From an uncultured Gammaproteobacteria bacterium (lineage in GTDB: Bacteria > Pseudomonadota > Gammaproteobacteria > JAGOUU01): a stretch of 60,738 nucleotides of DNA. Below are positions 5,527 through 56,177 of this stretch, in pieces. The first letter of the stretch is position 1; each line of letters begins with the position of its first letter. Made by a program: the position numbers and the translations under genes. The stretch spans positions 1 through 60,738 of the forward strand of contig CAYGUI010000002.1 in assembly GCA_964353115.1 (NCBI GenBank). Direction: 5' to 3'. The notes below the pieces were generated by a model, which saw nothing but the letters and a program-made list of their open reading frames with translations, did not search any database and was not told where the DNA came from.

Positions 5527-7752
5527 ATGCCAAAAATAAATGAATTTTCACATAGTTCTGTTCCAGTTTCTCCAGTTTCTCCAGTTTCTCCAGTTTCTCC
5601 AGTTTCTCCAGTTTCTCCAGTTTCTCCAGCTGCTTCTGCAGTATTAGCAAATTTTGCTCAGAAACCGGTAGAAAAAGAAATAAGTAGTGATGAATTTGAA
5701 GATTTAGAAGGTATTGATAGTGACGAGGAGGGCTCTTCTGCTGATCTAGTTACTGATTTTACAGTTCAAGGGCTTCATGTATTGAATTATCAACATATAG
5801 TAAGTTCTATGCAGCATTTACCACACAAAATATTTACATTTTTGCCGACTTTTAATATAACTAGTGGGAAATTTGAACCGCAAGCTACATTACCCTTTCC
5901 AGAAGTTGATTTTTTAAATATAGGAAATAAAATATTTTTTATTCTTGGCTTTAGTGGGAAAATGCGGTTGTTATTTGGAGCATCCCATTGTGTTCTATGC
6001 GAAGTAGATTTGCGAAAAAATTCTTCAGGAGAAATTGAAAGTGTAAATTTCACAATACACGATTCGGGTGGATGTGGAAGAATTAAAGCAGAGCGTGATA
6101 GTCAAGTTTATCCTGGATTAATAGAAGAATTTAAAAATTATTTCTCAACTGAATGTAAAATATCTGATAAAAGTAAAATAAATGGACGTGTAAATTATTT
6201 TGAAGTGCAAGGTCGTTTCCCAGCGCAGCAACAACACCCTGAAGAAAGAAATAGTTACGCAGCACTGTATCATAGCTATAATTCTTATGATCAAAAATGT
6301 ACTCTATATGCTTTTTTTCATGCTTATTTTGCTGCCGCGTCACAAAACTCTCTTACGAGGGTTGAAGCGCAAATAATTTACTTAATGGTTTTAGAATTAG
6401 ATTCAGTACAGTTAAGCAAAATGCAAACTAGTTTTCATAAGTTAAATTTTATTTTAACTGACGAAAAAATTGCTGAAATTAATGCTGAATGGGACAAAAC
6501 ATATCCACATATACCAGCAACCTTTTTATTAAAAGGGGCAGTTTCTAGAACTTTTTTTAAGAGTGAGAGTAAAATTGATTTTAATAAGTTTATGTTAGAT
6601 CGTTTATTAAAAGCGATTGATAATATAAATAATCCAGAGTCACTTGCTCTTTTTAAATTATTATTTATAGAGTTTTTGCGTAAAACAAATATTATTACAA
6701 TTGAAGTAAGTGATGAAATATCTATATTAAATATTTTTCCGACATTTGCAGAGTTAGTAAAGCTGGGTCAGGAGAAAATAGTTTATCCTGCTGCGCCAGC
6801 TGGGACTTTAAAGTCTTCGTTATCTGCTCCTGCGGCTTCTGAATCTCCAGTATTATCATCATCAGAAGAAGCTGATTTTGGAATACCTAGTGTTGAGGTT
6901 AATGCAGTACCAAAATATTATAGAGATGAAATGCCAGTGATTATTACAAATAGCCTTATAAGTAGTCGACACGACTCAGAAGTAGACGAAGAAGAGAAGA
7001 AATGGCGTTATCCTGCTGCGCCAGCTGGGACTTTAGAATCTTCTAATGATGAAGCAGGTCCTGCTTCTGAAAATTCAGTAGTTGTCCCTCTGAAAGCTAT
7101 TTCTTTAGTTAAATCTTTAGTGCCAGGTTTAGATGTATTAAATGCTCTTGGAAAATATCATGCTGGAATAAAAACTCCACATGTTATGCCAAAAAGAAGA
7201 AGAAAAATATCAGAGTTATCTGCTCCTGCAGGGTTAGAATTTAATTTGAATTTATTATTTTTTATTATGCAATATGAATCTACTCCGGCAATAGTAGAAG
7301 TTCTTGATTCTTCTTCTGACGATGAATCAGGTCCTGCAGATGATGTCTTCGAATTGCCAGTTATTACTAGAAATAGACCTGATAAAAAAATAACGGCAAG
7401 AACGGTGCTTTATATTGCTTTATGTCTATTATCTGCAGCGGCAATAGCTATTGCTTTAGCAACTATTGTATTGACCACGAATGGTATTGCATTGCCATTA
7501 ATGATGGGAGTTGTTGGTCTTGCTGCAAAATTTAGTTTTATTAGTGCGATAGTTGGTGGTGCTGGATTACTTTTTGGAGGACTGGCATCTTTGATTCATC
7601 CGAAGAGTTCTTCTTCACCTAAGAAGCCTATTACTCCGGATTCTGAACAGCCATCTTTGGCAAGTTCTTTGCCTGGTGTTGTTAGAGGTGCTGTTCCGGG
7701 TGAAGAAGGTCGCGCTGAAACTGATAAAGGACAAAACCCCCGCCCAGCTTAG
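5527..7752 (+). CDS. hypothetical repeat-rich protein (741 aa) with a C-terminal double hydrophobic domain
   Basis: Long ORF starting 5 nt after the NTPDase stop. Contains (PVS)7 near the N-terminus, duplicated YPAAPAGTL(K/E)SS segments and two adjacent TM helices (VLYIALCLLSAAAIAIALATIVL / PLMMGVVGLAAKFSFISAIVGGAGLLFGGLASL). The last codons and the stop lie inside a GC-rich repeat. Confidence 0.7.
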   Translation: MPKINEFSHSSVPVSPVSPVSPVSPVSPVSPVSPAASAVLANFAQKPVEKEISSDEFEDLEGIDSDEEGSSADLVTDFTVQGLHVLNYQHIVSSMQHLPHKIFTFLPTFNITSGKFEPQATLPFPEVDFLNIGNKIFFILGFSGKMRLLFGASHCVLCEVDLRKNSSGEIESVNFTIHDSGGCGRIKAERDSQVYPGLIEEFKNYFSTECKISDKSKINGRVNYFEVQGRFPAQQQHPEERNSYAALYHSYNSYDQKCTLYAFFHAYFAAASQNSLTRVEAQIIYLMVLELDSVQLSKMQTSFHKLNFILTDEKIAEINAEWDKTYPHIPATFLLKGAVSRTFFKSESKIDFNKFMLDRLLKAIDNINNPESLALFKLLFIEFLRKTNIITIEVSDEISILNIFPTFAELVKLGQEKIVYPAAPAGTLKSSLSAPAASESPVLSSSEEADFGIPSVEVNAVPKYYRDEMPVIITNSLISSRHDSEVDEEEKKWRYPAAPAGTLESSNDEAGPASENSVVVPLKAISLVKSLVPGLDVLNALGKYHAGIKTPHVMPKRRRKISELSAPAGLEFNLNLLFFIMQYESTPAIVEVLDSSSDDESGPADDVFELPVITRNRPDKKITARTVLYIALCLLSAAAIAIALATIVLTTNGIALPLMMGVVGLAAKFSFISAIVGGAGLLFGGLASLIHPKSSSSPKKPITPDSEQPSLASSLPGVVRGAVPGEEGRAETDKGQNPRPA
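5563..5625 (+). repeat. perfect 9-bp tandem repeat (CCAGTTTCT x7), in frame
   Basis: Seven contiguous identical units counted directly in the sequence. They encode PVSPVSPVS... Confidence 0.95.
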
Positions 7753-10962: not shown

Positions 10963-13137
10963 ATGAGTAAAGATCCTTTTTTCGATCGAGAATCAGAAAA
11001 GTACGAGAATCCCATCGCAAGTCGCGAATATATTATTAAAGTTTTAAAAGAATCTGGTAGCGTAGTAACTCTCAAAAGTTTATTAAATAAATTAGACATC
11101 ACCGATAAAACACAGAAAAAAGCGCTAAAATTTCGCTTAAAAGCAATGGAGCGCGATGGCCAAGTAATTTCTATGAATAAAAATAGATATGCATTGCCTG
11201 ATAAAGTTCCACTTATGTCAGGTTATGTTGGTGCTACGCGTGATGGCAGTTGTTATGTGCGTGAAACTGTAAGTGGTAATAAATATTTTATTAAACCACG
11301 CCAATGGCGCATGATTTTCCCGGGCGATAAAATTCTGTTCCGTAAAAGTGGAGCACTTTTACGTGGTGAGCCTGAAGCTGTAATTCAAGAAGTATCTGAA
11401 AAAAATACTAAAGAAATAGTTTGTAAATTAAAAGAGCGCGAAGGTGTTATTTTTGCTTACCCAATTAATACCCGAGTTAATCGTGAAATTTTAATTCAAA
11501 ATAAAAATATAACTCTTATTGCTGATGGCATTGTTAGCGTAAAGCTTTTAGATTATCCAACTCTTGATAATCCAGCTGTTGGTAAAGTGGTCAAAAACTT
11601 AGGTACAGAAATTGATTACAGGTTAGCAGTTGAAATTGCATATCGCGATTATAATATTCCATATAAATGGCCTAAGGATGTTAAAGAAGAATCATATAAG
11701 ATTCCTGATTCGGTACAACAAGAAGATCTTAAAAATAGAACAGATTTACGTGATTTGCCGTTGGTAACTATCGATGGTGAAACTGCAAAAGATTTTGATG
11801 ATGCAGTATATTGTGAAGATAAAGGCGACGAAGGTTTTCGATTAATAGTTGCAATTGCTGATGTTGCTACTTATGTAAAAGAAGGTAGTGCATTAGATCG
11901 TGAGGCGCAAGAGCGCGGTAATTCGGTATATTTTCCAGGAACAGTTGTGCCAATGTTGCCAGAAAAATTATCTAATGGTCTTTGTTCGCTTAATCCTGGT
12001 GTTGATCGCTTGTGTTTAGTGTGTGATGCATTAATTAGTAACGAAGGAATTACCACAGAGTTTAAGTTTTATGCAGCTGTTATGAACTCAAAAGCACGTA
12101 TGACTTATAACAATGTTGCTAAAATTTTATATGACAATGATCGTAAGTTAAAAAAGCAATATGATTATGTTTTAGAAAATTTAGATAATCTTAATAAATT
12201 ATTTAATATTTTGCATAAAGCACGTGTAACTCGTGGAGCTATTGATTTTGATACAGTTGAAACTCAAATTATTTTTGATAAAAACAAAGAAATTGCGGAA
12301 ATTAAGCCAGTTGTACGTAATAACGCTCACAGAATTATTGAAGAATGCATGCTGGTTGCCAATGTTGCAGCAGCAAATTTTGTGACTAAAAATAAAATAA
12401 AAGTTTTATTTCGTAATCATGAAGAGCCGCCAAAAGAAAAAGCTGCAAATTTACGCAAATTTTTAGCTATGCACGGATTAGCATTGAGAAATAAAGACGA
12501 AATTTTACCGCAAGATTTGAATAAGGTTTTAGAGAAAATTCAAGATCGTCCGGATAAACAAATTATTGAAACTATAGTTTTACGCTCCATGGCGCAAGCA
12601 GGATATGAGGCGGAAAACAAAGGACATTTTGGTTTAGCATATGATGCTTATACGCATTTTACTTCTCCAATTAGACGTTATCCCGATTTATTTTTGCATC
12701 GTCAAATTCATAATTTTTTAGGAACTCATCATTTAAATAAAAGAGAAGAAATCATTCATGAAGAGCAGCTAAAAAGAGCGCATCAACTTGGCGAACAATG
12801 TTCGATGACTGAGCGTAGGGCTGATGATGCAACGCGCGATGTTACGGCTTGGTTAAAGTGCAAATATATGTACGATAAATTAGGTAATGTATATCCAGGA
12901 AGTATTACCGGGGTTACTAATTTTGGTATTTTTATAACACTTAAAGACTTTTATGTTGAAGGCCTTGTGCATATTACAACACTTGGCAAGCAAGAATATT
13001 TTGAATATGACGAAGTTAGATTCAGACTAATTGGCGAGCGTAGTGGAAAAATATATAGTATCGGCGATAAAGTAACGGTAAAAGTTATGCGAGTTGATCT
13101 TGATGAGAAGCAAATTGATTTTGATCTAGTAAAATAA
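10963..13137 (+). CDS. rnr: ribonuclease R
   Basis: RNB catalytic motif HFGLAYDAYTHFTSPIRRYPDLFLHRQI, a C-terminal S1-like domain (GSITGVTNFGIFITL), 724 aa. Confidence 0.95.
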   Translation: MSKDPFFDRESEKYENPIASREYIIKVLKESGSVVTLKSLLNKLDITDKTQKKALKFRLKAMERDGQVISMNKNRYALPDKVPLMSGYVGATRDGSCYVRETVSGNKYFIKPRQWRMIFPGDKILFRKSGALLRGEPEAVIQEVSEKNTKEIVCKLKEREGVIFAYPINTRVNREILIQNKNITLIADGIVSVKLLDYPTLDNPAVGKVVKNLGTEIDYRLAVEIAYRDYNIPYKWPKDVKEESYKIPDSVQQEDLKNRTDLRDLPLVTIDGETAKDFDDAVYCEDKGDEGFRLIVAIADVATYVKEGSALDREAQERGNSVYFPGTVVPMLPEKLSNGLCSLNPGVDRLCLVCDALISNEGITTEFKFYAAVMNSKARMTYNNVAKILYDNDRKLKKQYDYVLENLDNLNKLFNILHKARVTRGAIDFDTVETQIIFDKNKEIAEIKPVVRNNAHRIIEECMLVANVAAANFVTKNKIKVLFRNHEEPPKEKAANLRKFLAMHGLALRNKDEILPQDLNKVLEKIQDRPDKQIIETIVLRSMAQAGYEAENKGHFGLAYDAYTHFTSPIRRYPDLFLHRQIHNFLGTHHLNKREEIIHEEQLKRAHQLGEQCSMTERRADDATRDVTAWLKCKYMYDKLGNVYPGSITGVTNFGIFITLKDFYVEGLVHITTLGKQEYFEYDEVRFRLIGERSGKIYSIGDKVTVKVMRVDLDEKQIDFDLVK

Positions 13138-13184: not shown

Positions 13185-13991
13185 ATGAATTTAAAAAAAT
13201 ACGCTATTTTTTTCTTAAGCATATGTTTTTGTAACATTTTTGCGGCAGAGTATTGCGATAAAAGTAAATCATCTTGCCAACAAAAATGTCTTGAGATACA
13301 TAACTATCTTGATTCTAAGAAAAATGATTTAAAAAAGTATGCTAGCTTAATGCAAAAGGCGAAAGAAGCGCGTTGCATACAAAGGGTTAAGCGTTTTGAG
13401 CATGTAAATTTTTTAAAAAAGCACAATAAAAAAGAACCTGTAGTTGGACAATCTTCAAATCAGGCAATAATTCAAATTGCTGACAAATATAAAGTATTAA
13501 ATATATGTGACGATTTTGGTTCCAGTAATATTAAACAAATTGAAAATGAAAAAATTGAACTGGGATTTTTTCAATCAAGAAATCAATTTGAAAAAGAGAC
13601 TGGAACATTTTTAAGTGCTTTTGGAGACATAGCGGCTAATCCTGATGTTGGAGTCCAATCTGTCACTCCTGTTTGTTACAAAAAAAATTCTGGAAAGTTA
13701 AGTCGTTTGATAAATTTAGCGCCAGAGCAAGGTATTTATACTATAAACAAAGGTTATAAATTATATCCTGGAGATATAGAAAGAATAGCTTGTAAGCCAA
13801 AGCAAGGGACATCAAGAGAGTGCGTATTAATTACGGTCAATCGTTATCAATTAAATAAATACAATATAAATAATGGAAATGTTTTTGAATCAACATTAGG
13901 AAATCCAAATACTTTAAATCAAAGTTACATTAATAATTTTATTAAAAGTAGTGATTTAGTCTATCCTCAAAATATTAAAAGGTTAAATTAA
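13185..13991 (+). CDS. hypothetical secreted protein, first gene of the cysteine-rich operon
   Basis: ATG at 13185 (the track gives TTG 13173) yields the signal peptide MNLKKYAIFFLSICFCNIFA. The C-terminal ACKPKQGTSRECVLI resembles the start of the 4-Cys module of the downstream genes. The stop overlaps the next start (TAATG). Confidence 0.65.
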   Translation: MNLKKYAIFFLSICFCNIFAAEYCDKSKSSCQQKCLEIHNYLDSKKNDLKKYASLMQKAKEARCIQRVKRFEHVNFLKKHNKKEPVVGQSSNQAIIQIADKYKVLNICDDFGSSNIKQIENEKIELGFFQSRNQFEKETGTFLSAFGDIAANPDVGVQSVTPVCYKKNSGKLSRLINLAPEQGIYTINKGYKLYPGDIERIACKPKQGTSRECVLITVNRYQLNKYNINNGNVFESTLGNPNTLNQSYINNFIKSSDLVYPQNIKRLN

Positions 13992-15322
13992 TGAAGAAAT
14001 TTTTTATATTTTTAGTAGCAGGCATATTTAATATTTCATTTGCAAATACTAATCCACAAGATTTGGGGCCAATAACCTATGAATGTGCAGCAGTATGTAC
14101 TGATAATGTTAAATATTATAAGAATTTTTATAAGTTTGAAGCTGCAGCCTATAAAGGAGTTATAACTTATTCTCCTGAGAATAGTAATTATAGTTTGACT
14201 CAGCAGGATGTTATCGATCTTGGTAAATCATATTGTCAAGATATGGCATTAATTGCACTTACATGCGATCGAGAATCTAATAATTTAATCAATAAAAATA
14301 ATTATCCTGATAGCTCTTTTGGTGCAATGCCTGTTAATTGTAATGAAGAGACTCCGCCGCCACCAGCAAAAGAAGATTATATGTTGATTCCTGAAGAAAA
14401 TATTTATGTAAAATTATTTTCTCGTGAAAAAGAATCGGTTAATACTTTGATCTCTCAAGTCCAAGATCAAACTATCCCAAAAGTTGAGAGAATTGATGAG
14501 ATAGAAGATCAGTTAACAACTGCATCAGGGCAACAAAGCACTGATTTACAAAATGAAAGAACTAGGTTAGAAAATGAAATTAAACAAATATCTAGTCAAG
14601 CAACACCATATATTAAAGATATTAAAGAAGCATGTCCTTCTAATGCTGTAGATTATTCAATAATTGAAGTAGATGATGATGTATATAAAAAATATTGCTT
14701 TGAAAACTGTAAAGCTGATTTTAGCCGAATAAAGGCAGAGCAAGAAATACAGGGAGATATTTATAACGTTATAACTGCAGATGATTATAGTATTTGCTAC
14801 AAACAATGCCCAAGTTCACAAAAACTATATAAAGATTTTTATTGCTATCAAGATATTCCATGCCCAGTTTTTAATCCCTATGCTAAAGAGAATAATTCAC
14901 AAGATTTTAATTGTTATCAGATAAATACTAAGCAATTTAGTGTTTGTCCTTATCATGAATCTTTATTAAATAAAAATATTTTGTTCTCATCGACTAGTAA
15001 TATGTTTCTAAATTCAGGAACTTATGAGGTTAAATCTTTAAGAAATAATGATCAACAATGTTTAGATGAGCGTTACGGTATTAAAATTTATGGAAAATTG
15101 ATTGAACTTACTGGAGTTTCAGGTGATTTATTTTGCTTATATTTTGATGGAAGTTTATGGTCTATAACTAATAAGCTGACTCTTGGATTTGTAAAAATGA
15201 AAAATTTTAATTTCTTTGATTCAGAAAATAACTTAAAAAGAGAGCCTGCAAGAAATTATGCTCCGCATCAAGAAATACCTCCTGATGAAATTATGTTGAA
15301 TTTAGGTGCTACAGAAGGCTAA
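13991..15322 (+). CDS. hypothetical secreted cysteine-rich protein (443 aa)
   Basis: Signal peptide MKKFFIFLVAGIFNISFA, many Cys residues, and a central charged, coiled-coil-like stretch (ERIDEIEDQLT...LQNERTRLENEIKQ). I recognised no family. Confidence 0.7.
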   Translation: MKKFFIFLVAGIFNISFANTNPQDLGPITYECAAVCTDNVKYYKNFYKFEAAAYKGVITYSPENSNYSLTQQDVIDLGKSYCQDMALIALTCDRESNNLINKNNYPDSSFGAMPVNCNEETPPPPAKEDYMLIPEENIYVKLFSREKESVNTLISQVQDQTIPKVERIDEIEDQLTTASGQQSTDLQNERTRLENEIKQISSQATPYIKDIKEACPSNAVDYSIIEVDDDVYKKYCFENCKADFSRIKAEQEIQGDIYNVITADDYSICYKQCPSSQKLYKDFYCYQDIPCPVFNPYAKENNSQDFNCYQINTKQFSVCPYHESLLNKNILFSSTSNMFLNSGTYEVKSLRNNDQQCLDERYGIKIYGKLIELTGVSGDLFCLYFDGSLWSITNKLTLGFVKMKNFNFFDSENNLKREPARNYAPHQEIPPDEIMLNLGATEG

Positions 15323-15338: not shown

Positions 15339-18300
15339 ATGACATTTAGAAAGATTACAGCAAGTTTCGTATTATTTACATATTTAGTATCAATTACGGC
15401 TACGAGCTTTGCTCTTAATAGTCCTCTTTCAAAAATAATTAGCTCCGGTAATCAGGATGCTAAACGAATAAGTGAAGTGTTAACTGGTGGAATTGCTGAT
15501 ACTGGCAGAGGTTGGTGCTGGAAAAGTAATTACTATAAAGATGATCCTCGGCCATTATCAGACTGCCCAAGTAATAAAGAAAAAGTTGGCGCATTATGTT
15601 TTCCTTTTTGCCCTGAAGGATATAGAAGATTGCCTGGAGATATTACAGGTATTTGTTATGCAAATTGTCCCTCTAATTCTACTGATACCTTATTATTTTG
15701 TGGTTTTAGTACCTCTTGTGATACTCAATTTTTTAAAAGTGGGGTAATGCCATCTTGCCCTAAAAAATCAATCATAGGTAGAAGGCCTTATACCGCTAAG
15801 TGCACTGCGTCAAGGTGGAAAAAAATAGTGACATTAGGAACTATTTGCTTAGCTAGACGTTATTTGAAGTGTAAAAATGATCGAGTTTTGGGCTCTGGTG
15901 GCTCTTTGTTGTGTTATGATCGATGCCCCAGTAATATGAGTATTAATGGAGTTGGGGATTGCTACGCAGGGTGTCCTAGCGGTTGGACAAGTCATGGGCT
16001 ACTTTGTAATAATCAGCCAGCGATGAATTGTCAGAATGAGCCAAGAATGGCTGCTGGATCTAAGCCATTGTGTCCAAAAAGTAGCAATGGAGCTGGTGCT
16101 CTTGGTACTCCATTACAATGTCCACCACATCGTGAACGTGATGGAGCATTGTGTTATACGCCATGTAACCCTGGTTATGATCGAACTGCTGGTTTTTGTT
16201 GGCAAGAATGTTCAAATTCTTTTTTCCCATCAAGTTGTGCTTCTGCATGCGCTATTTCCAGTGGTACATGTGGTAGTGTTATTGCTAATCAAGTAATTGC
16301 CCCAGTTATGGCGGTTGTAACTATTTTAGTTACAGCATTAAGTGCTGGTACAGCAGCACCAGCAATGAAAGCAGCAAATGCTGGTATGAAAGTTGCAGCA
16401 AATACTGCGAAGGTCGGTAGAATTTCCACAAGGGTTGCAAGAGCTGGACAAAGAATTTCAGGTAGTTTATTACGTTCAAGCAGTAGAATTTTGCAAAAGG
16501 TGGGGCAAAAACTAGGTACTTATAGTACAACTATTGCTACTCATACTTCAAAATCATTTGCTAAGCAAGTTGCTGTTAATTTAGCCAAATCTGCAGTAGC
16601 GCGCTCTTTTGCTGTTGGTGTTAGAGTTGGATGCCAAGAAGGTATGAAGCCACATTTGGCACAAAATAAAGATTTAGCGTATGTTTGTACAGCAGCCAGT
16701 GCTGCTACAGCAATTGTTGCTAATGTTGGACTTACTGCGGCATCAGGTGTTGCTGGTTATTCAGGTAAAGAATTGTTTAATGGCATTGCTCCAACTGGTC
16801 TTGCTGGAGTTAAAAATACTTTTAGTTTTACAACAGCGCTACCAGTATTGGCTAATTTAGCTAGTATGGGTGTTGATATGCGTAAGTATGCTTCTTGTCA
16901 AGATGAAGTAGCAAAAGCAACAACAGCATCAGCAGTAAGTATGCACTGTAAAAAATATGCTTCAATTATTAATGAATTGAAGAGAATAAATCAGGTTAAT
17001 ACTAAAAATAACGAAAACGATTTTACTAATTTAGTTAATTTAAGTAAGCAAGGTTGGGCATCTGCTGCAGCTAACTCATTTAGACTGGAAAATTTCCCTG
17101 CTATCAATAAACAGAATTGTGACAATCTAGAGATACTACGACAAAATGGTATGTGTCGTGTAGCAGGATTATTTATAAAATCTGATACACCTTTTAGTTA
17201 TATTGATTTTACAAAAGATACTAAATCTAATGATATTATCTTGACAGATTATACTGATGTTGGATTTACTCTTGAAGAAGCAATGGAGTGTAACAATGGA
17301 GCAGCTAATGATAAATGCCAATTTGCTGCGGTAATAGTCAACTCTAATATTCCTAATGTATTAAATCCACTAATAGAGGTGCAAAAATTAGTACAATCTA
17401 CTAATTTTCAACAAACATTTGGTTTGCCAACAGGTACTGTTTCGCAAGATGTTAATGTTAGCCCAATGGAAAAATTAATTTGTAAGGAGATTAATAATAA
17501 AGCTCGTTTAGAAGATCCAAATGCTGGTATACAGATTAGTGATGCTAATTGTAGAAAAATAATAGATTCTTACGAAAAATTTTATCAGTCAGGGGATCTT
17601 TCAAATATAGATCTAGATTTAGATACTATTAGTGGAAATTTAACTGATAAAGAAGAAGTGGAATGGCGCTTAAAAATGGAGTTATCAAATTCTATATTTG
17701 AAACTTCCAAAGCGATTCAAGAAAGTGATAGGGTCAATAGTATTTTAAATAAGGTTATTGATGAAGTAGAGCGACAAGGCTTTAATCGTGATGATGCCTC
17801 AAAATATGCTGGAGTTATTATTGACACTATAGCAACGGCAGTTTCAAAAAAATCAGCAGAAGCTCAGGCGCGTGAAATATATGAAGATCCATATTTTTGG
17901 TTGGGAGTTGCTTCGGCAGTTGATCCAACAGGGCTTGTGGCTGTAATTGATGCATTTTTATCTGATAAATGCCAAACAATTAGTTCATTACCATTTAGCC
18001 AAGTTATTAGAGATCCGCGTTTTAGTCTAGATAATGTGAATAAATATTATGCATTTAAATATGGAGTGCAAGCACTGAATGCTTCAGCCTCAAATGGTAT
18101 TGTTCATCCGGAAACAGTATTTGATCATGATAGGTGGTTTGCTGCAGTAGTAGATAACGATGAATTATTTGGTTATGTTTCCGATCTTAAGGATGTAAGG
18201 GTAGATGGATCTAGAGTAAATGTTGTAAAAGATGGTAAATCTGCGATTGAAATGATGATTGAGGTAATGCCAAGTTTACCAGAATTTAGTCGATTAAATT

Positions 18301-19265
18301 ATTCTTGGATCGACCAGTCATCATATGTTGGTAATAAGGATGTTTATAAAAAAATTCATATGGATAATAATTTAAATTTCTGGTATTGGAAATTAGTAAA
18401 TAATACTCCAACACTTTACGTGTATGTTTACAAAGATCAAGCTGAGAAAAAAGCCATTGATTATAATAAATCAGGCACGTATCAAGTTGAAAATAAACTC
18501 GTCAATAAAATAACAGGTGATATATCTATTGCTCCAAATGCTGCGGCTAGTGCAAAACAAAAATCTGGTGCAAATTTATTATTTAATGTTGACTTTGATA
18601 CAAATAGTAATTTACGTGCTAGAGAAAATACACATAATTTAACCGTATTTGATCCAACATCCGCTAACGAGCAACCAAAAGCAATAAATTGTTTAGATAA
18701 AGTAGATGCTTTAGATAATAGATCTTGCGTACTATTTTATGCTGATAGATGTGAAAATGTATTTGTTGCTGGAGATGGAAGCAAGGTTTTATCTACAGTG
18801 ACTGATGCAAATTGTGGCTCTGATACTTTAATTAAAAGAAGAATTGCTCGTGCAAAATATCATCAGCCTGGAGTAAAAACCTTCAAGCAAGATTATAAAA
18901 ATGTAATATTTATTGAATTTGAGGCTGTTAATAATAATGGAAATTTATCAGCTAGTATTGTTGGTGATGAAGAAATTAATAATGATCCAGGTCGTCAGGC
19001 TGATGCAATCATTTGTAAAGATAATGCTGATTCAAGCAATAATCGACAATGTGTTTTCATAAGCGAAGATTCTTGTCTTCGTGTAAGTATTGATAATTTT
19101 TCAGGTAGAGAAACTGCTCGTTCAGTTGATAGAAACTGTGGTTACGGTACAACGCAAAAACTTGTACAAATAAAGCAAGAATTTGCTGAGCCAGGTAAAA
19201 GAGCATATAACGATAAATTTTTAAATGCAGTATCAATTGACTTTATAGTCAGCATTACACCATGA
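15339..19265 (+). CDS. hypothetical large secreted/membrane protein (1308 aa): Cys-rich N-domain, Ala/Gly-rich hydrophobic region, two C-terminal 4-Cys modules
   Basis: Has a signal peptide and roughly 50 Cys in the first 310 aa, with a recurring LC[FY]xxCPxG[YW]...C[YW]xxC[PS] unit. A hydrophobic helix VIAPVMAVVTILVTALSAGTAA follows. C-terminal modules begin at Cys codons 18690 and 19014. Confidence 0.8.
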   Translation: MTFRKITASFVLFTYLVSITATSFALNSPLSKIISSGNQDAKRISEVLTGGIADTGRGWCWKSNYYKDDPRPLSDCPSNKEKVGALCFPFCPEGYRRLPGDITGICYANCPSNSTDTLLFCGFSTSCDTQFFKSGVMPSCPKKSIIGRRPYTAKCTASRWKKIVTLGTICLARRYLKCKNDRVLGSGGSLLCYDRCPSNMSINGVGDCYAGCPSGWTSHGLLCNNQPAMNCQNEPRMAAGSKPLCPKSSNGAGALGTPLQCPPHRERDGALCYTPCNPGYDRTAGFCWQECSNSFFPSSCASACAISSGTCGSVIANQVIAPVMAVVTILVTALSAGTAAPAMKAANAGMKVAANTAKVGRISTRVARAGQRISGSLLRSSSRILQKVGQKLGTYSTTIATHTSKSFAKQVAVNLAKSAVARSFAVGVRVGCQEGMKPHLAQNKDLAYVCTAASAATAIVANVGLTAASGVAGYSGKELFNGIAPTGLAGVKNTFSFTTALPVLANLASMGVDMRKYASCQDEVAKATTASAVSMHCKKYASIINELKRINQVNTKNNENDFTNLVNLSKQGWASAAANSFRLENFPAINKQNCDNLEILRQNGMCRVAGLFIKSDTPFSYIDFTKDTKSNDIILTDYTDVGFTLEEAMECNNGAANDKCQFAAVIVNSNIPNVLNPLIEVQKLVQSTNFQQTFGLPTGTVSQDVNVSPMEKLICKEINNKARLEDPNAGIQISDANCRKIIDSYEKFYQSGDLSNIDLDLDTISGNLTDKEEVEWRLKMELSNSIFETSKAIQESDRVNSILNKVIDEVERQGFNRDDASKYAGVIIDTIATAVSKKSAEAQAREIYEDPYFWLGVASAVDPTGLVAVIDAFLSDKCQTISSLPFSQVIRDPRFSLDNVNKYYAFKYGVQALNASASNGIVHPETVFDHDRWFAAVVDNDELFGYVSDLKDVRVDGSRVNVVKDGKSAIEMMIEVMPSLPEFSRLNYSWIDQSSYVGNKDVYKKIHMDNNLNFWYWKLVNNTPTLYVYVYKDQAEKKAIDYNKSGTYQVENKLVNKITGDISIAPNAAASAKQKSGANLLFNVDFDTNSNLRARENTHNLTVFDPTSANEQPKAINCLDKVDALDNRSCVLFYADRCENVFVAGDGSKVLSTVTDANCGSDTLIKRRIARAKYHQPGVKTFKQDYKNVIFIEFEAVNNNGNLSASIVGDEEINNDPGRQADAIICKDNADSSNNRQCVFISEDSCLRVSIDNFSGRETARSVDRNCGYGTTQKLVQIKQEFAEPGKRAYNDKFLNAVSIDFIVSITP

Positions 19266-19275
19266 GGAATGTAAT

Positions 19276-22200
19276 ATGAAATCAATATTAAAATTATTGC
19301 TTCTAATTTTTTTTGCAAGCTGTTATGCAGAAGAGTTGACTGTAAAAATTGAAAAGGGTCCAATAATTAATTTGAATGATCAAGCAGATATTTTAGCGGC
19401 TAATTGTAAAAATGATATCGATCAAGATAATAATAGAGAATGTGTTGTAATAAAAAGAAGTAAATGTATAAAAATATTATTTAATAATTTTAATGGTAGG
19501 GAAATATCAAGAACTGATGATAATACCTGTGGTTTTGATACTCCAGCAAAAAAAATAATAGCTGAGAGAGAATATTTTAAAAAAGGTGAAAAAGCTCATA
19601 AAAAAGAATTTAGTGAAATTGGCGCAATTAGATTTGATGTAAGATTAGGAAATGATACGCCAGTTATTGATATGATTGGTCATAGAAATATTATAGATAT
19701 GACTGGCGATCAATACGCTGTAAACTGTAAAGATCAGATTTTCCCAAATAATTTACGTGAGTGTTTTATTGCCTATGATAATAAATGTATAAAATTATAT
19801 TTTGATAATGATACAGGGGTAGAAAATACTGCTGCGAAAACAGAAGATACTAGCTGTAATGCATCGCAATCAGGGCGCGGAAAATTAAAAGAAAATTATA
19901 TTCAAGATGGAAGAAAAGCTCATAGACCATACCTAGAAGATTATTTAAAAATTAATTTTAAATTTACAGGTTCGAATTTACAAATAATAGATAATTCAAA
20001 TAATAAAACGACGTCTTTTACATATCCTTCAAATCAAACGCCGGATGCTGTAAATTGTCTTGATGAAATTTTTCCAGGAAACAATAGGCAATGTTTTTTA
20101 ATTTATTCTGATAAATGTATTAAAGTTACTTTAAATAATTATAGTTCTGAAACTGTTGCTGAAGAGGCAGATAATAGTTGTAATTATAGTAGTAAAGAAG
20201 GTCGTAATTCTATTCGTGATAAATTTTCTAAAAAAGGCGTTCAATATAGTAATGAAAATTTTATAAAAAATATTGCTCTTAAATTTGACGTTAAAAAAAA
20301 TAATAATGGTAAATTATCTGCTGATATATTAGATATAAGAAATATTTTAAATAAAGACTCTTCAGACTCTCCATCCGCAGTTATTTGTAAAAATAAAGTA
20401 GACTCATCTAATAACAGTAGAGAGTGTGTATATTTTTATCCTGAGTATTGTTTGCGTATAAATTTAGGTAATTTTAGTGGGATTGAGCTGAGTAAAACAA
20501 AAGATGTTAGCTGTGGTTACTCTATTAAAAATAATTTAGATAAAGTTCTTGAAGAGCTAAGAGAGGATGGTGAAAAGGCTTTTATTGATAATTTTTTTCC
20601 ATCGATACCATATAAATTTAATTTAAAATTAAACAAACCATATAATGGTCAGGATGATATTACAAAGAATACGGTAACTATAAATGATATAGCTTATCAT
20701 TTTACGGATAGGCAAATTACTCAAGTTCTTAATTTTATACCAGCATTTTATTGTAAAGATGTAAATTTAGACAATAAAGTGGAATGTGTAGAGGTTTTAG
20801 CTGATCATTGTATTAGAACTACTTTTTTAAATAAAGAATTTGATCCACAGGGTAAAAATTTTAAGGATATTTATGAATCGCAAATAACAGATGAAAAGTG
20901 TGGTTATTTAACAACGGAGTTATATAATATTTCAGCTAATGAATTAGCTGCTCAAAAAAAATCTGAAAGAAAATTTATCAATTCCCCATTTTACGATAAG
21001 CCTTCGGAGCAATTAGAAGTAAAAGTAGAAAGAGTTCCGTGGTTTTCAATACATGCTTCACCAGTCCTTACTCTTTCTGCCGGCGGTAAGTTTATTGTAA
21101 AACCTTTTATAGAAACAAAAGAAAGAGATTACTTATTTAACCAGTATGGAATTGATAGACCATATAGTATTATTTGTAAAAGGAGTAATTCTGCAAATGT
21201 AATAGATTGTGAGGTTATTAATGATAATAGTTGCCATGTTTTGCAATTTGATGCAACTAGTTATGATTATAAAAATACTAAAATTAGCAATAGTTGCACA
21301 AAATTCTCTAAAGGTAATATTACAGTAGATTTTAGTGCTCCTAATGGATATACATCAACAGCACCTTCAAATTATATTCAGTTAGAAAAATCTTATAAAG
21401 ATTATTTTTTATCAGCAGCTCCTAATATGCGCGGAACAGTAGTAGATAGCATATATGGAAATAATGATCATAGTTTTGTATTTCCAAGAGATAAAGATGG
21501 TTATTTAAATCTTAAAATTACAAATGTTGGTCGCCAGGATATTAATGTACCAATAACTATTTCTAATGTAGCTGGTATAGCATGTCAAAATCACAAATTA
21601 TTTCCAGGAACTTCATCGATTCCTGCGCCAAATATTGATAGTAGAAATTTATATTTTAGAGATAATAAATACTATCCGGCTTCTACATGGTGTTTAGCAA
21701 TCGGTGAGAATTCTTGTGAATATATAGAAATAAATAGTTCCGCTGAAGTTGTGTCACGAAAAAGAGATAATGATTGTGGTTATGTTTCAAATAAAAAACT
21801 AGAGCGTTCATTATGGTATGATCTATTTTTTCTTCAACCGGATTTACAATATTTAGTACCAGATAAAGATGCGCTATTTACCTATCATTATTTAATAGCT
21901 ATTGATTGGAAAAAAACAAACTCTCCTGTTTTTAGTTCTTCGGTGAGTGTATTTGATAGAAATAAATATTATTTTAATTATGGTTCTGAACTCAAATTTT
22001 GGATTGATCATTCAACCAATACTCCAATGGCTCAGGCCAGCATATTTCCAGATCTTATAAGTTCAGATGATCCAAAAAAAGTAATTTTTATTGATAAACA
22101 AGTTGGTTTTGATCCACCAAATGATAATTCTACAGCTATTGCTGCAGGATGCAAAAAAATAACCAAGGATAATCCTGATTATCGAGAATGTATTTTAGTT

Positions 22201-25200
22201 TTTGAGAATGGTTGCCATTTATTTGAACTTAATAATGAAAGTGGTGAAATAAAAAAAGCTTCATTAAGAAAAATTAAAGAATGTGGTTATAAAACACAAA
22301 AACAATTTTCTTATGCGAATGATTTTATAAAAGATTTAGAACTTCATAAGGATAAAACTTTAAAAATTGAATGGTTTAAAAAGCCAAGAGCTAATTTAAC
22401 ATTTGAAAAACAGCAATTTTCTGGTGCTGATAGGATTATTGTTTCTTCAGAAAATCGTACTGATAAAATAGTCGATCAAAATACAATATATAGAAAAAAT
22501 ACCGAAACATTTAACCCAGTTGCTGCTGTTTGTAAAGATGTGGATGCTAATGATCCAAATAATCGCGAATGTTTAATTGTATATCGTGATAAATGTGATT
22601 ATTTTAAAATAGATAATATGACTTCTGTTGAAGTTCCAAATAGTCGAGAAGTAAGAGAAGATTGTGGTTATTTGATTACCTCTCGTTATGTTGAGGCTAA
22701 GAAGTTTTTAGATGCTCAAAAAGATGAAACGCAAAAAATTATTTTGAATGATTTTCAAGCTTCTGATATTCAATTAGTTTTTTCATTACAAAATCAGCGT
22801 CCTATAATTAGTGCAGTAGGAATTACAACGCCAATCATAGATAGTTTGTATAAAACAGTTAATCTTGATTTTGCATTGGCTGCAGCTTGTAAAGATGAAG
22901 ACCGAGTCAATAATATTGGTTTTAGGGAATGTTTAGTCATATTTAAAGATGAATGTCATAAGTTTTTATTGGATAAATTAACAGGAGATATTAAAACAGG
23001 ATCAAAAGAAATTTTAACTAGTTGTGGAGCAAGTACTAAAGATAAATTTAATATCGCAAATAATTTTTATACTTCAAATCAAGTTAGCCAGGGTCAAAGC
23101 ATAAAAGGTAACGGTTACTATTCTCCAATAATTGAATTATCATTTATTTTAGATAGCTTAGGCTGGTTTTCGACAACTAAAGCGCCGGTTATTAAAGATT
23201 TGACCAATAGTAAAATAATAAGTGATCAATACTCAAAATCCTCAATTAGCAGTCGTTTTGCAGCAGCTGCTGCTTGTCAGCCATCAAAAAATTTGCCACC
23301 AGATTTTATAGAATGTTTAATTATTTATCCTGATAGCTGTAGATATTTTAAAATTGATCCTTACACTGGCGTAAAAATAGCAAATTCAGAAGAGATTAGA
23401 ACTTTTTGTGGCTATGAAGAAATTAATAAATATTATGTTTCTTCAAAATTTTATGACCCACTTACTTTAAATACGCAGAAAATTGCAACTAAAGATTACC
23501 ATCCTGTTATTGATACATTAAATTTTTCATTAAGAAGAGATCAAAATTTAAATGTAGATAATATAAAAATAGTATCCTCATCATCTGGATATAATATTAT
23601 TAATGTATCAGATTATATAGGAGGGCCTTATCCAAATATTGAATATGCTGCAGCTGCAGTATGTAAAGATCCTAGTCCTAATAATGAAGAAATTAGAGAG
23701 TGCTTATTAATTTTCAAAGATCAGTGTTTGCATTTTAAAATAAATAGTTACACAAGTTTTTATTATGAGCCAGGAAATATGTTTAGTCATAATAGATTAA
23801 AAGATAGGTGGAATAATTGCGGTTACTCTAATGTTAAAAAATATAAAGTAGCTAATGATTTTTATGAATCACAAATAAATTCAAGTGATAAAATACAGAC
23901 AGATAGGTATGTTAGACCAAAAATTCCACTTAACTTTAGCTTAAGTAACAATACTAATTCTCCAGTTATTGCAAGTGATCAGTTATCTGATCCTATAATA
24001 AAAGAAGATTATACGTTGCCATTTTTATCTACCCCAGAGAGCTCTGTAGCTGCTGGGTGTAAAGATTATCCGCTAAATCCAGCTCAAAAAGAATGTTTAG
24101 TAGTCTTTAAAGATTATTGTAGTTCTTTTAGGATTGACTCATATACTGGTGATATTAATGTAACTACTCAGTCATATCCTAGTGATTGTGGATATAGTAC
24201 ATTAGCAAAATATCTTTACGCTTTAAAATTCTTAGAGACTGTTGAAAAAGATCAAAAAGTAGTAAATTCTGATTTTTTACCACCATTGTTAAAATTATCT
24301 TTTAATAAAGATAGGTTTTATAGCACTGAAATTACAGGTATTGGTCGTACTAGTCCTATAATTGATAAATTCTATATAATAGGAGCTCTTCCTAATCAGG
24401 AATACGCCGAAGCTGCAGTTTGCCAAGATCCTGACGTAAATAATAACTCAAAAAGAAGATGTATGTTGATATTTGCTAACGAATGTCATTCTTTTGATAT
24501 TAATTCTTATACGGGAGATATTAATACGGCTAGTAAATCTATTACTACTACTTGTGGTTATAGTACTTCAGCCAAATTTAGAAATGCTAATGCATTTTAT
24601 ATGTTGCAAACGAAAGTAGATCAAAAAATTGCAGGTGCTAAATTTGCTGATCCAAACTGCTCATTACCTGATAGTAAATTAAAAGAGCTTGATGATTTTA
24701 TATTAAACAAATTTACTGGTTACTATCAAAATGATACTAATTTTATAAATATTAAATTGGATTTATCACGTTCAATAGATCGTCAATTTAATATTTCAAC
24801 TTGTAGTTCAGCAGATCCTTTGCCAGCAAAAATTGTGGAGTATAAAAATTTACTTAACACTGATGCATGTAATCTGGTATTAAAAACAATGAGTTTAGAT
24901 CTTGTTGGTGATAAAAGTAGAAATTTTTATACGTATGTTAATTCTCGTAAATTAATTAATACTTCTTTGCCTACAGTAACTAATCCATATAGCTTGGATA
25001 TTGATAAATTAAATTTATATAACTCAGGTATGAGTGATATGGATTTTATAACTGAATTTTTGGCAACGATACAAAATATAACAGCCAATAATTTTAGATC
25101 TGATTGGAATTGTAATATTAATGCGACTACAAATACTGCTACTAACATCGCGGCATTTAGTCGTGAGAACAGAATTGAACAAAATTTAGTTGCTAATAGA

Positions 25201-25527
25201 AATATTGCTAATAATACCAAAATAATGGATGGTCAAGCACAAAGAACTATATTATTTACTGCAAAAGAGCTTGATATATACTCAGCATTAAATTTAAACA
25301 TTAATATTAATATTCAGCCAGCAAATTGTGGAATAGTAGCTCTGTGTTTAAATAACTATGAATTTGATATTAAAGACGTATTAAGATTAACTAAAAGCTT
25401 AAAATCTCTAAAACTTAATATCGATACACAATGTTTTGCAAATAGAGGAAATGCTATAGTTAATGTTCCGTTATTGGTGTATTTTGATAGTAGTTGTAAT
25501 AGTGGTAATATGAGCCTTTCTTCTTAG
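19276..25527 (+). CDS. hypothetical giant secreted protein (2083 aa) built from 14 tandem 4-Cys modules plus a unique C-terminal domain
   Basis: Signal or lipoprotein-like N-terminus MKSILKLLLLIFFASCYA. Module first-Cys codons are at 19405, 19726, 20055, 20386, 20752, 21175, 21583, 22149, 22531, 22888, 23275, 23662, 24058 and 24421. The ORF is uninterrupted for 6.25 kb in an AT-rich genome. Confidence 0.85.
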   Translation: MKSILKLLLLIFFASCYAEELTVKIEKGPIINLNDQADILAANCKNDIDQDNNRECVVIKRSKCIKILFNNFNGREISRTDDNTCGFDTPAKKIIAEREYFKKGEKAHKKEFSEIGAIRFDVRLGNDTPVIDMIGHRNIIDMTGDQYAVNCKDQIFPNNLRECFIAYDNKCIKLYFDNDTGVENTAAKTEDTSCNASQSGRGKLKENYIQDGRKAHRPYLEDYLKINFKFTGSNLQIIDNSNNKTTSFTYPSNQTPDAVNCLDEIFPGNNRQCFLIYSDKCIKVTLNNYSSETVAEEADNSCNYSSKEGRNSIRDKFSKKGVQYSNENFIKNIALKFDVKKNNNGKLSADILDIRNILNKDSSDSPSAVICKNKVDSSNNSRECVYFYPEYCLRINLGNFSGIELSKTKDVSCGYSIKNNLDKVLEELREDGEKAFIDNFFPSIPYKFNLKLNKPYNGQDDITKNTVTINDIAYHFTDRQITQVLNFIPAFYCKDVNLDNKVECVEVLADHCIRTTFLNKEFDPQGKNFKDIYESQITDEKCGYLTTELYNISANELAAQKKSERKFINSPFYDKPSEQLEVKVERVPWFSIHASPVLTLSAGGKFIVKPFIETKERDYLFNQYGIDRPYSIICKRSNSANVIDCEVINDNSCHVLQFDATSYDYKNTKISNSCTKFSKGNITVDFSAPNGYTSTAPSNYIQLEKSYKDYFLSAAPNMRGTVVDSIYGNNDHSFVFPRDKDGYLNLKITNVGRQDINVPITISNVAGIACQNHKLFPGTSSIPAPNIDSRNLYFRDNKYYPASTWCLAIGENSCEYIEINSSAEVVSRKRDNDCGYVSNKKLERSLWYDLFFLQPDLQYLVPDKDALFTYHYLIAIDWKKTNSPVFSSSVSVFDRNKYYFNYGSELKFWIDHSTNTPMAQASIFPDLISSDDPKKVIFIDKQVGFDPPNDNSTAIAAGCKKITKDNPDYRECILVFENGCHLFELNNESGEIKKASLRKIKECGYKTQKQFSYANDFIKDLELHKDKTLKIEWFKKPRANLTFEKQQFSGADRIIVSSENRTDKIVDQNTIYRKNTETFNPVAAVCKDVDANDPNNRECLIVYRDKCDYFKIDNMTSVEVPNSREVREDCGYLITSRYVEAKKFLDAQKDETQKIILNDFQASDIQLVFSLQNQRPIISAVGITTPIIDSLYKTVNLDFALAAACKDEDRVNNIGFRECLVIFKDECHKFLLDKLTGDIKTGSKEILTSCGASTKDKFNIANNFYTSNQVSQGQSIKGNGYYSPIIELSFILDSLGWFSTTKAPVIKDLTNSKIISDQYSKSSISSRFAAAAACQPSKNLPPDFIECLIIYPDSCRYFKIDPYTGVKIANSEEIRTFCGYEEINKYYVSSKFYDPLTLNTQKIATKDYHPVIDTLNFSLRRDQNLNVDNIKIVSSSSGYNIINVSDYIGGPYPNIEYAAAAVCKDPSPNNEEIRECLLIFKDQCLHFKINSYTSFYYEPGNMFSHNRLKDRWNNCGYSNVKKYKVANDFYESQINSSDKIQTDRYVRPKIPLNFSLSNNTNSPVIASDQLSDPIIKEDYTLPFLSTPESSVAAGCKDYPLNPAQKECLVVFKDYCSSFRIDSYTGDINVTTQSYPSDCGYSTLAKYLYALKFLETVEKDQKVVNSDFLPPLLKLSFNKDRFYSTEITGIGRTSPIIDKFYIIGALPNQEYAEAAVCQDPDVNNNSKRRCMLIFANECHSFDINSYTGDINTASKSITTTCGYSTSAKFRNANAFYMLQTKVDQKIAGAKFADPNCSLPDSKLKELDDFILNKFTGYYQNDTNFINIKLDLSRSIDRQFNISTCSSADPLPAKIVEYKNLLNTDACNLVLKTMSLDLVGDKSRNFYTYVNSRKLINTSLPTVTNPYSLDIDKLNLYNSGMSDMDFITEFLATIQNITANNFRSDWNCNINATTNTATNIAAFSRENRIEQNLVANRNIANNTKIMDGQAQRTILFTAKELDIYSALNLNININIQPANCGIVALCLNNYEFDIKDVLRLTKSLKSLKLNIDTQCFANRGNAIVNVPLLVYFDSSCNSGNMSLSS

Positions 25528-25541
25528 TTAAAAGTAGTACC

Positions 25542-26273
25542 ATGAAAAAGAATATAATTGAACTTTACGGCATTCATGTCGCGGCAACAGCCTTACAAGA
25601 ATGCCCTGAAAATATAATAAAAATAGTTGCGATTGATGCTAAAAATAGCCCGAAAATAAATAGCCTGTTAAGCTTGGCGCGTAAATATGGAATTAGTATT
25701 GAAGTTCGCGCTGCTAAAAGGGCCGACGAAGAGTTGGCCCATCAGGGAATTTTTGTTGAATTAAAGGCACCTAAGCACAAGGGGCTGTCAGAGCTTGCAA
25801 GTTTTCTTGATAAAATAGCTGATAAAAAAGGTAAGCGAATTTTAATTTTAGATCAGGTGCAAGATCCGCGTAATTTGGGTGCTTGCCTACGCTCAGCTGA
25901 TGCAGCTGGTGTTGACTGTGTTATTTTGCCAGAAAAGCATAGCGCGCCACTATCAAGCGTTGCTTACAAATCTTCAGCTGGAGCGGCATTTTATTTACCA
26001 ATCTTTTACGTTAATAATTTGGCACAGAGCATACAAGTATTAAAAGATCATAATTTTTGGATTTATGGTAGTGATCTTAAAGCTCAAAAAACTTTGCATA
26101 ATATTGATTTTGCTGATAATTCAGTGATAGTCATGGGGTCGGAAGATACCGGGATTCGTGACTTAACAGCTAAAAGCTGCGACGAGCTGTTTTATATCCC
26201 AATGAAAGGACGCGTTGAGAGCCTTAATGTCTCGGTCGCAACGGGAATATCCTTGTTTTTTTGTGCAAAATAG
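25542..26273 (+). CDS. rlmB: 23S rRNA (guanosine-2'-O-)-methyltransferase RlmB (SpoU/TrmH family)
   Basis: SpoU motifs (DQVQDPRNLGACLRSADAAGV, MGSEDTGI, ESLNVSVA), 243 aa, positioned upstream of rpsF as in Pseudomonas. Confidence 0.85.
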   Translation: MKKNIIELYGIHVAATALQECPENIIKIVAIDAKNSPKINSLLSLARKYGISIEVRAAKRADEELAHQGIFVELKAPKHKGLSELASFLDKIADKKGKRILILDQVQDPRNLGACLRSADAAGVDCVILPEKHSAPLSSVAYKSSAGAAFYLPIFYVNNLAQSIQVLKDHNFWIYGSDLKAQKTLHNIDFADNSVIVMGSEDTGIRDLTAKSCDELFYIPMKGRVESLNVSVATGISLFFCAK

Positions 26274-26344
26274 GTTACCATTCTTGCTTACCTTTCTTTG
26301 GCATGGGGTCAAAGATTACTATTAATAAACCATAAGGTGACAAA

Positions 26345-38916: not shown

Positions 38917-38917
38917 T

Positions 38918-55348: not shown

Positions 55349-55361
55349 TTTTATTTACCTC

Positions 55362-55742: not shown

Positions 55743-55764
55743 TTTAATTTCTCCTAAATTATTT

Positions 55765-56151: not shown

Positions 56152-56177
56152 ATAATTCCCTTTATTTTTCTTTTATT

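Follow-up and report, generated by a model that had tools for sequence, protein, structure and literature searches.

Giant bacterial adhesins, which include SiiE, LapA and MpIBP, are built from arrays of Ig-like/BIg, cadherin-like, Calx-beta or HYR repeats that are usually free of Cys and rigidified by Ca2+, and these proteins typically carry C-terminal type I secretion system (T1SS) signals. More generally, repeat domains of the orphan kind are no rarity among bacteria known from metagenomes. Here we describe an array of 16 four-Cys modules encoded by two adjacent genes, g3 and g4, in a 60,738-nucleotide (nt) stretch of DNA from an uncultured gammaproteobacterium (contig CAYGUI010000002.1; hereafter the window), with two modules at the C-terminus of g3 and 14 in g4 (regular expression on the translations and coordinate table; Table 1). 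Our searches support the module as a previously uncatalogued domain family in the libraries covered (Pfam, NCBIfam, PHROGs and PDB). Like the giant adhesin repeats, the modules are β-rich units of roughly 100 residues that stand head-to-tail in large number and make up most of a protein of more than 1000 amino acids (aa); g4 further shares with them strongly diverged copies and a distinct terminal region. On the other hand, the module has no sequence or profile relation to these repeats (whole-protein Pfam scans returned only sub-threshold noise, namely BRE4 at E 0.023 and Cadherin at E 0.048, the latter below the Pfam cut-off), its structural models gave no Ig-like matches in Foldseek, each unit carries four invariant Cys, and the window proteins bear putative N-terminal Sec signal peptides where giant adhesins typically have C-terminal T1SS signals. 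A T1SS-secreted, RTX-type giant adhesin was considered and rejected, as there is no RTX/hemolysin-type Ca-binding Pfam match, the putative signal peptide is N-terminal, and no T1SS genes are present in the 60-kb window.

A second group of described systems, the small eukaryotic extracellular modules held by disulfides (EGF, Sushi/CCP, PAN/apple and TSP repeats), resembles the module in having an invariant Cys framework within otherwise free sequence and a mosaic extracellular architecture, and in the contig of one outside relative (L002) the module array adjoins genuine cEGF/EGF_CA domains. However, the Pfam models of these repeats match none of the 33 modules that we collected from three lineages. 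The four-Cys unit is also larger than EGF-type modules (105-130 aa, with the four Cys within ~45 residues), and its predicted topology of a meander, a helix and further strands is without a PDB neighbour. TraA of Myxococcus, an outer-membrane exchange protein with stalk repeats (NF033759), likewise represents Cys-rich tandem repeats in cell-surface proteins, and the repeats preceding the array in L002 faintly resemble the TraA type (E 8e-5); this likeness concerns the neighbouring 'CxEC' repeats rather than the four-Cys module, and reaches 21 bits against a cut-off of 750.

The first-pass annotation of this DNA had proposed an undescribed, old and selectively maintained four-Cys module spanning two genes, a description that is supported here by reciprocal profiles, library searches and DNA divergence. 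When the 16 window units are aligned with MAFFT, all four Cys columns are invariant, and column identity averages only 22%. In g4, residues 19-1794 hold 56 Cys in all, which is four for every module with none left over. The C2-x7-C3 spacing is fixed in all copies, while the C1-C2 gap ranges from 9 to 17 residues (35 in one copy) and the C3-C4 gap from 19 to 30, yielding the family signature [AG]-x-[AG]-C1-x(9-17)-C2-x7-C3-x(19-30)-C4-G-[YF]. Module length is about 105-130 residues and the period 105-190 residues. The regular expression proposed earlier does describe a motif that recurs at 16 sites, but it was too strict for several copies: three (C1 at 19726, 20056 and 21175) have N or T, not G, after C4, and the [RE]-[EQ] pair ahead of C2 is absent from five. 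Small corrections also apply to its coordinates, where 14 of 16 first-Cys codons were exact and two are moved by one position (20055 to 20056 and 22149 to 22150), so that C1-to-C1 spacings remain at 321-423 nt with a single outlier of 567 nt, not 566. As had been noted, the array continues across the gene boundary. The g3 stop codon (19263-19265) is followed by a 10-nt gap containing a GAGGAA ribosome-binding site, the g4 ATG at 19276 and a putative signal peptide, and the C1-to-C1 distance over this boundary is 391 nt. The C1-C2 loop varies in length and sequence and is rich in D/N (26% versus 16% overall). Only the Cys, one Gly and the core hydrophobic positions are conserved across the three lineages.

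To look for relatives outside the window, a profile of the 16 window units (A1) was compared with 1.84 billion representative proteins in full HMMER. Apart from g4 and g3 themselves, only two true relatives were found: P0003 (E 6.7e-30; 1618 aa, 9 tandem module copies, ENA ERZ15185898) and P0004 (E 1.4e-9; 1111 aa, 8-9 copies), the latter with a 90%-identity cluster mate, P0007 (P0004 and P0007 together: ENA ERZ28615365 and Logan). The array family is extremely rare, with three lineages among the 1.84 billion representatives. Both outside proteins follow the motif [AG]-x-G-C...C-x7-C...C-G-[YF] with a helix afterwards, and their modules, also in tandem arrays, share 15-17% identity with those of the window; they differ in their shorter periods (~100-115 aa), in a Trp conserved before C4 and in their N-terminal partners. 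In the reverse direction, a hidden Markov model (HMM) made from the outside modules only recovered all 14 + 2 window copies (g4 E 2.6e-62, g3 E 2.9e-10) and had no other match in a six-frame translation of the window. When the 33 modules are aligned, the four Cys are invariant and G follows C4 in >90%. Invariant Cys, the x7 spacing, the Gly and reciprocal profile detection therefore unite g3/g4, P0003 and P0004/P0007 as a new family.

The inability of the first-pass annotation to match the module to a named domain holds up, in that no Pfam family is matched by more than one of the 33 modules (best E 0.06); P0003 and P0004 have no Pfam or NCBIfam match, and the whole proteins g1 to g4 have no Pfam, NCBIfam or PHROGs family match. 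In hmmsearch of PDB sequences the best hit of A1 has E 0.44, and a profile of all 33 modules (A2) gives none at E <= 10. A word-indexed search of whole g4 against 5.8 billion clustered proteins returned only g4 itself, scans of genome, metagenome and viral contigs and tblastn against plasmids gave no g4 match, and scanning metagenome contigs with the P0003 array was equally negative. Two flavobacterial Calx-beta proteins (P0005 and P0006) produced many ~8-bit matches to the Cys-free profile positions 64-112. These were rejected as spurious, because hhalign of A1 against the Calx-beta repeats gives a probability of only 0.5% (E 0.12).

The genes of P0003 and P0004 lie on bacterial contigs of ~33% GC with housekeeping genes around them, and no g1-, g2- or g3-like neighbours are found beside either; searching the literature for their sample accessions brought up nothing of significance. 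P0004 also has a signal-peptide-like N-terminus. In P0003 the array sits behind Asp/Cys-rich and 'CxEC' repeats. In the part described here (L001 10001-14857, residues ~100-640) there are ~11 'DTDNDGTPDCNDQC...PGxCGCG' repeats, unrecognised by Pfam, and behind them, in the middle of the protein, the 'CxEC' repeats; NCBIfam has no match in P0003. The gene directly upstream of the P0004/P0007 array protein (L002 1-1020) encodes the cEGF/EGF_CA domains together with 'CxEC' repeats as in P0003. One lineage therefore joins a Cys-rich region and a four-Cys array in a single protein, and the other two have them in neighbouring genes.

To describe the unit structurally, one module was modelled with AlphaFold2 using the 16 paralogues as alignment, giving a predicted local distance difference test (pLDDT) score of 89 and a predicted template modelling (pTM) score of 0.71. 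The model has four Cys-bearing strands, a 12-residue helix right after C4-G-Y, and then three strands. Foldseek found no significant neighbour for it in the PDB (best E 0.72, template modelling score (TM) <= 0.32) and none in BFVD (best E 0.065, TM <= 0.34); the module may be a new fold. A two-module model was less confident (pLDDT 71; Cys cores 75-89, inter-core hairpins 59-73), and its best PDB matches in Foldseek were β-propellers (E >= 5.6e-3, TM <= 0.25), which we read as local β-meander likeness only. Since a strand or hairpin precedes the first C1 at the start of g4 and P0004, and g3 ends one strand past the helix, the inter-core hairpin may bridge neighbouring cores.

Copies of the module are diverged at the DNA level, as the first-pass annotation had stated. 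No array of 320-570 nt period is detected by TRF, and recurring DNA similarity is limited to short (~24 nt) patches around C1, so the repeat is old and not an assembly artefact. By pairwise identity the copies split into an A-type of ~108 aa (the pair in g3 and copies 1-4 of g4) and a B-type of ~120-130 aa (g4 copies 8-14), with three divergent copies in the middle of g4. The g3 pair is colinear with g4 residues 231-448 (copies 3-4; BLASTP 34% identity over 218 aa, 3 gaps, E 8e-38) and matches g4 copies 1-2 more weakly (26% identity, E 7e-19); g3 pair and g4 copies 3-4 are reciprocal best module pairs, and a 29-nt patch is common to the g3 block (18930) and g4 (20299) at equivalent positions. 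Of the two histories offered by the first-pass annotation, fission or duplication of an ancestral array, block colinearity favours the latter and a simple fission is disfavoured. Because of this colinearity, and because g4 has its own ribosome-binding site, its own putative signal peptide and a reading frame different from that of g3, a two-module block that was duplicated or transferred would fit the sequences better than the splitting of one gene. The ratio of nonsynonymous to synonymous substitution (dN/dS) between copies, which had been suggested as a check, was computed and is uninformative, because synonymous sites are saturated (proportion of synonymous differences, pS, 0.49-0.67; GC content at third codon positions, GC3, 0.14).

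What might such an array do? The reading that we favour, to which we give about as much credence as doubt, is that the modules serve as stalk or spacer units, stapled by disulfides, in adhesin-like proteins that are exported by Sec and anchored in the envelope. In this scheme g3 and g4 would be exported by their Sec signal peptides, and once in an oxidising periplasm each unit would close two disulfides among its four invariant Cys. Units joined head-to-tail would then make a long stalk able to resist proteases and force, 14 of them spanning perhaps tens of nanometres. The g4 stalk would bear the unique, Cys-containing C-terminal region and might be lipid-anchored at its N-terminus, two further units would extend a membrane-anchored, Cys-rich g3, and the g1-g4 island would most likely encode an adhesin-like envelope or surface structure. 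Such a structural reading is the most economical because conservation is confined to the Cys, one Gly and core hydrophobics. It also draws on the confident one-module model, the signal-peptide-like N-termini of the island proteins and of P0004, the exact four Cys per module in the g4 array, the Cys-rich, EGF-like and HYR neighbours of the module or of its relatives, the tight packing of the island and a hint of host association. The repeat, its invariant positions, its rarity, the lack of catalogued relatives, a predicted secondary structure and the duplicated block are what the sequences and models show; that disulfides form, that the proteins lie past the inner membrane, that they act as a stalk or adhesin, and how the organism lives, we infer. 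Several observations count against this proposal. All role assignments are made by analogy, and the window shows neither a secretion system nor a sorting signal, and neither an outer-membrane anchor nor a Dsb gene. The topology of g3 is a hydropathy guess only, and the two-module model, being moderately confident, does not fix unit packing or the domain boundary. The lack of a neighbour refers to PDB, BFVD and mostly prokaryotic gene calls. The D/N enrichment of the C1-C2 loop could instead mark a ligand or Ca2+ site. Finally, neither g4 nor the RNase R of this contig has a close relative in a collection of genomes from 185,579 species, so that public data cover the organism poorly.

The D/N-enriched loop also bears on a different proposal, that of a multivalent binding array in which each module would bind a ligand (lectin-like or host-receptor-binding) and the protein would work by avidity rather than as an inert stalk. 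A loop of variable length and sequence resembles binding loops on a disulfide-fixed scaffold, two module subtypes plus three strongly divergent copies within one protein could mean diversified specificities, and the module keeps company with eukaryote-like extracellular domains; we nevertheless find that none of the polar or aromatic surface positions is shared by all three lineages, and see no likeness to any lectin or receptor-binding fold (Foldseek, Pfam), and regard such an array as unlikely, if still credible. More speculatively, the module could be a new fold, stapled by disulfides, that came from eukaryotes (protist hosts) or mimics them, acquired together with EGF-, TSP- and HYR-like domains by a few amoeba-associated, Legionellales-like bacteria and deployed as a host-engaging surface fibre of at least 50 nm. 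We think this rather improbable, and were it true it would add a new class to the known 'eukaryote-like' proteins of bacteria, as well as a new superfamily of extracellular domains. Quite improbable, in our view, is a toxin-like pair, with g3 as the membrane-inserting or pore-forming partner and g4 serving receptor binding or delivery through a toxin-type repeat region. Such a pair would give a purpose to the strongly hydrophobic, Ala/Gly-rich g3 segment that is conserved in two further proteins, P0012 and P0013, and to an island of four co-oriented orphan secreted proteins whose GC3 is slightly below that of core genes; but no toxin, enzymatic or translocation domain was detected in any library searched, and P0003 and P0004 occur without g3-, g1- or g2-like genes alongside.

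Very improbable is an oversized β-propeller or toroid, in which the four-stranded meander would serve as a blade and 14 units would close into one or two rings. The idea comes from the best, albeit weak, Foldseek matches of both models, nearly all of which are β-propellers (DPP-IV, prolyl oligopeptidase, TolB, Nup133, DDB1). A propeller is expected to have four-stranded blades of ~40-50 residues closing into a ring and to superpose significantly, whereas here the matches are non-significant (best E 5.6e-3, TM <= 0.34), the 105-190-residue period is two to four times a blade, every unit has its own helix and extra strands, and unit numbers (2, 8-9, 9, 14) and spacer lengths vary in a manner atypical of closed propellers. 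A chance pattern, low complexity or an assembly artefact can practically be dismissed: the AT-rich, Asn/Lys/Ile-rich composition of g4 is all that speaks for it, against an independent profile with E 2.6e-62, four Cys invariant in 33 modules of three lineages, and no DNA-level repetition able to cause assembly collapse or expansion.

If confirmed, the disulfide-stapled stalk would amount to a new extracytoplasmic domain family, possibly a new fold, and to a design unusual for bacteria, namely a repeat stalk with two disulfides per unit. Because the family is rare and consistently found beside Cys-rich, eukaryote-like extracellular domains, it is also a candidate marker by which surface structures for host interaction might be recognised in AT-rich gammaproteobacteria that are uncultured. 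The module is suited to family curation and structure determination; its function being inferred, it neither opens nor settles a major question by itself.

Table 1. Features of the rnr-rlmB region, in window coordinates. Module rows give the C1-C4 core and are based on the regular expression, the MAFFT alignment, the outside-protein HMM and the coordinate table.
Feature	Position (nt)	Strand	Description
rnr (RNase R)	10963-13137	+	Upstream flank, 47 nt before g1; identity read from the translation
g1	13185-13991	+	268 aa, signal-peptide-like MNLKKYAIFFLSICFCNIFA; first gene of the four-gene island; from ORF (open reading frame) list and translation
Possible degenerate module remnant in g1	13779-13886	+	IACKPKQGTSRECVLITVNRY...; C1 and C2 kept, C3 (now Tyr) and C4 lost
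g2	13991-15322	+	443 aa, signal-peptide-like N-terminus, Cys-containing; from ORF list
g3	15339-19265	+	1308 aa; putative signal peptide, Cys-rich N-terminal region, hydrophobic segments, central region, two C-terminal modules
g3 residues 59-311	15513-16271	+	'GALC[YF]xxCxxGY' repeats, 27 Cys; own uncatalogued family with P0012 and P0013
g3 residues 315-340	16281-16358	+	Strong transmembrane-like segment; Kyte-Doolittle maximum 2.24
g3 residues 446-467	16674-16739	+	Weaker hydrophobic segment; Kyte-Doolittle maximum 1.54
g3 two-module block, residues 1088-1302	18600-19244	+	Paralogous to g4 copies 3-4, nt 19966-20619
Module 1 core	18690-18815	+	g3 C1118-C1159
Module 2 core	19014-19139	+	g3 C1226-C1267
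g4	19276-25527	+	2083 aa; putative signal peptide MKSILKLLLLIFFASCYA with lipobox-like FAS|C, 14 modules, 287-aa C-terminal region
Module 3 core	19405-19530	+	g4 C44-C85
Module 4 core	19726-19857	+	g4 C151-C194
Module 5 core	20056-20181	+	g4 C261-C302
Module 6 core	20386-20514	+	g4 C371-C413
Module 7 core	20752-20901	+	g4 C493-C542; divergent
Module 8 core	21175-21297	+	g4 C634-C674; divergent, T after C4, plus insertion
Module 9 core	21583-21777	+	g4 C770-C834; divergent, 35-residue C1-C2 loop, long spacer afterwards
Module 10 core	22150-22284	+	g4 C959-C1003
Module 11 core	22531-22665	+	g4 C1086-C1130; copy modelled with AlphaFold2
Module 12 core	22888-23025	+	g4 C1205-C1250
Module 13 core	23275-23409	+	g4 C1334-C1378
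Module 14 core	23662-23820	+	g4 C1463-C1515
Module 15 core	24058-24189	+	g4 C1595-C1638
Module 16 core	24421-24555	+	g4 C1716-C1760
g4 C-terminal non-repeat region, residues 1797-2083	24664-25524	+	7 of the 8 post-array Cys; C1795 just before
rlmB (23S rRNA methyltransferase)	25542-26273	+	Downstream flank, 14 nt after g4; Pfam and NCBIfam

The putative signal peptide at the N-terminus of g4 (19276-19329) ends in ...IFFASC16YA, where C16 is the sole non-module Cys in residues 1-1794. Compared with the lipobox [LVI][ASTVI][GAS]C, the run I-F-F-A-S-C16 fits at -2 and -1 and has F rather than L/V/I at -3; as a working lipobox it would make g4 a lipoprotein, and g4 may be lipid-anchored at this end. 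The mature region contains 56 + 8 Cys. Its C-terminal 287 residues, for which the whole-g4 protein search, Pfam and PDB gave no relatives, are a candidate 'head', anchoring part or functional end.

The N-terminal part of g3 belongs to a second uncatalogued family, made up of Cys-rich repeats and a hydrophobic segment (g3 residues 59-340 and 836-895; 15513-16358 and 17844-18023), to which the HYR-domain protein P0012 (1608 aa) and P0013 (665 aa) also belong. Homology to these two was found by protein search and BLASTP alignment (E 4.4e-18 and 1.4e-16, respectively), while the Cys-rich region has no Pfam or PDB match. P0012 carries HYR adhesion domains (Pfam) in place of the modules of g3. The first hydrophobic segment of g3 is Ala/Gly-rich and conserved in both homologues, and a K/R-rich loop separates it from the second. 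If g3 spans the membrane twice, its two large parts, modules included, would both lie outside the cytoplasm.

By ORF layout, the array genes are part of a one-strand gene string running from rnr through g1, g2, g3, g4 and rlmB to rpsF and rplI, the last three genes being identified by Pfam and NCBIfam. Intergenic distances from rnr to rlmB are -1 to 47 nt. A consensus scan found no terminator-like hairpin at any gene junction in this interval; the first one trailing a gene end lies just 3' of rlmB (26295-26315, a consensus match only), and the few hairpins inside rnr and g3 do not exceed the count in shuffled sequence. In gammaproteobacteria rnr and rlmB are normally neighbours, which makes g1-g4 look like a 12.4-kb accessory island inserted between them. 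GC3 in g1-g4 is 0.14-0.19, slightly under that of core genes (0.20-0.32). All four island proteins have signal-peptide-like N-termini, judged by eye and hydropathy, and neither g2, g3 nor the C-terminus of g4 has a significant match in the PDB.

The first-pass annotation had also placed a degenerate half-module at the end of g1, with Cys3 replaced by Tyr. This segment is in register over C1-C2 and does show the exchange; however, C4 is lost as well, the single-sequence test gives 7.7 bits (E ~2e-4), and a six-frame profile search did not find it at E <= 10, so the case for a true remnant is weakly supported. If real, its retention of C1 and C2 would hint at C1-C2 and C3-C4 pairing.

Elsewhere in the window, several further features were noted. 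The organism is an AT-rich gammaproteobacterium, probably host-associated and Legionellales-like. A GDA1/CD39-type ecto-nucleoside triphosphate diphosphohydrolase (ecto-NTPDase), a eukaryote-like enzyme, is encoded at 4406-5521 (Pfam E 8e-52). Since a CD39-type ecto-NTPDase is known from Legionella pneumophila (PMC7542358), its presence here may, by analogy, be a hint of host-association. Beside it, a 741-aa ORF (5527-7752) with an N-terminal (PVS)n repeat, no Pfam match and no obvious signal peptide could be an effector. On the minus strand, 54965-56567 holds four tandem paralogues encoding small exported proteins of 126-129 aa (pairwise identity ~30-50%) that have in common a signal peptide, a pair of conserved Cys and the motif 'LTGNFTRxNFExF'; three of them (55362-56567) were compared with Pfam and had no match. 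The same strand carries a transfer-messenger RNA (tmRNA) gene at 36985-37353 (Rfam 205 bits) with the tag peptide ANDENFASADLKAA, and at 38903-39358, after a photolyase gene, lies a 'Host_attach'/baeRF family-12 protein (Pfam E 9e-29).

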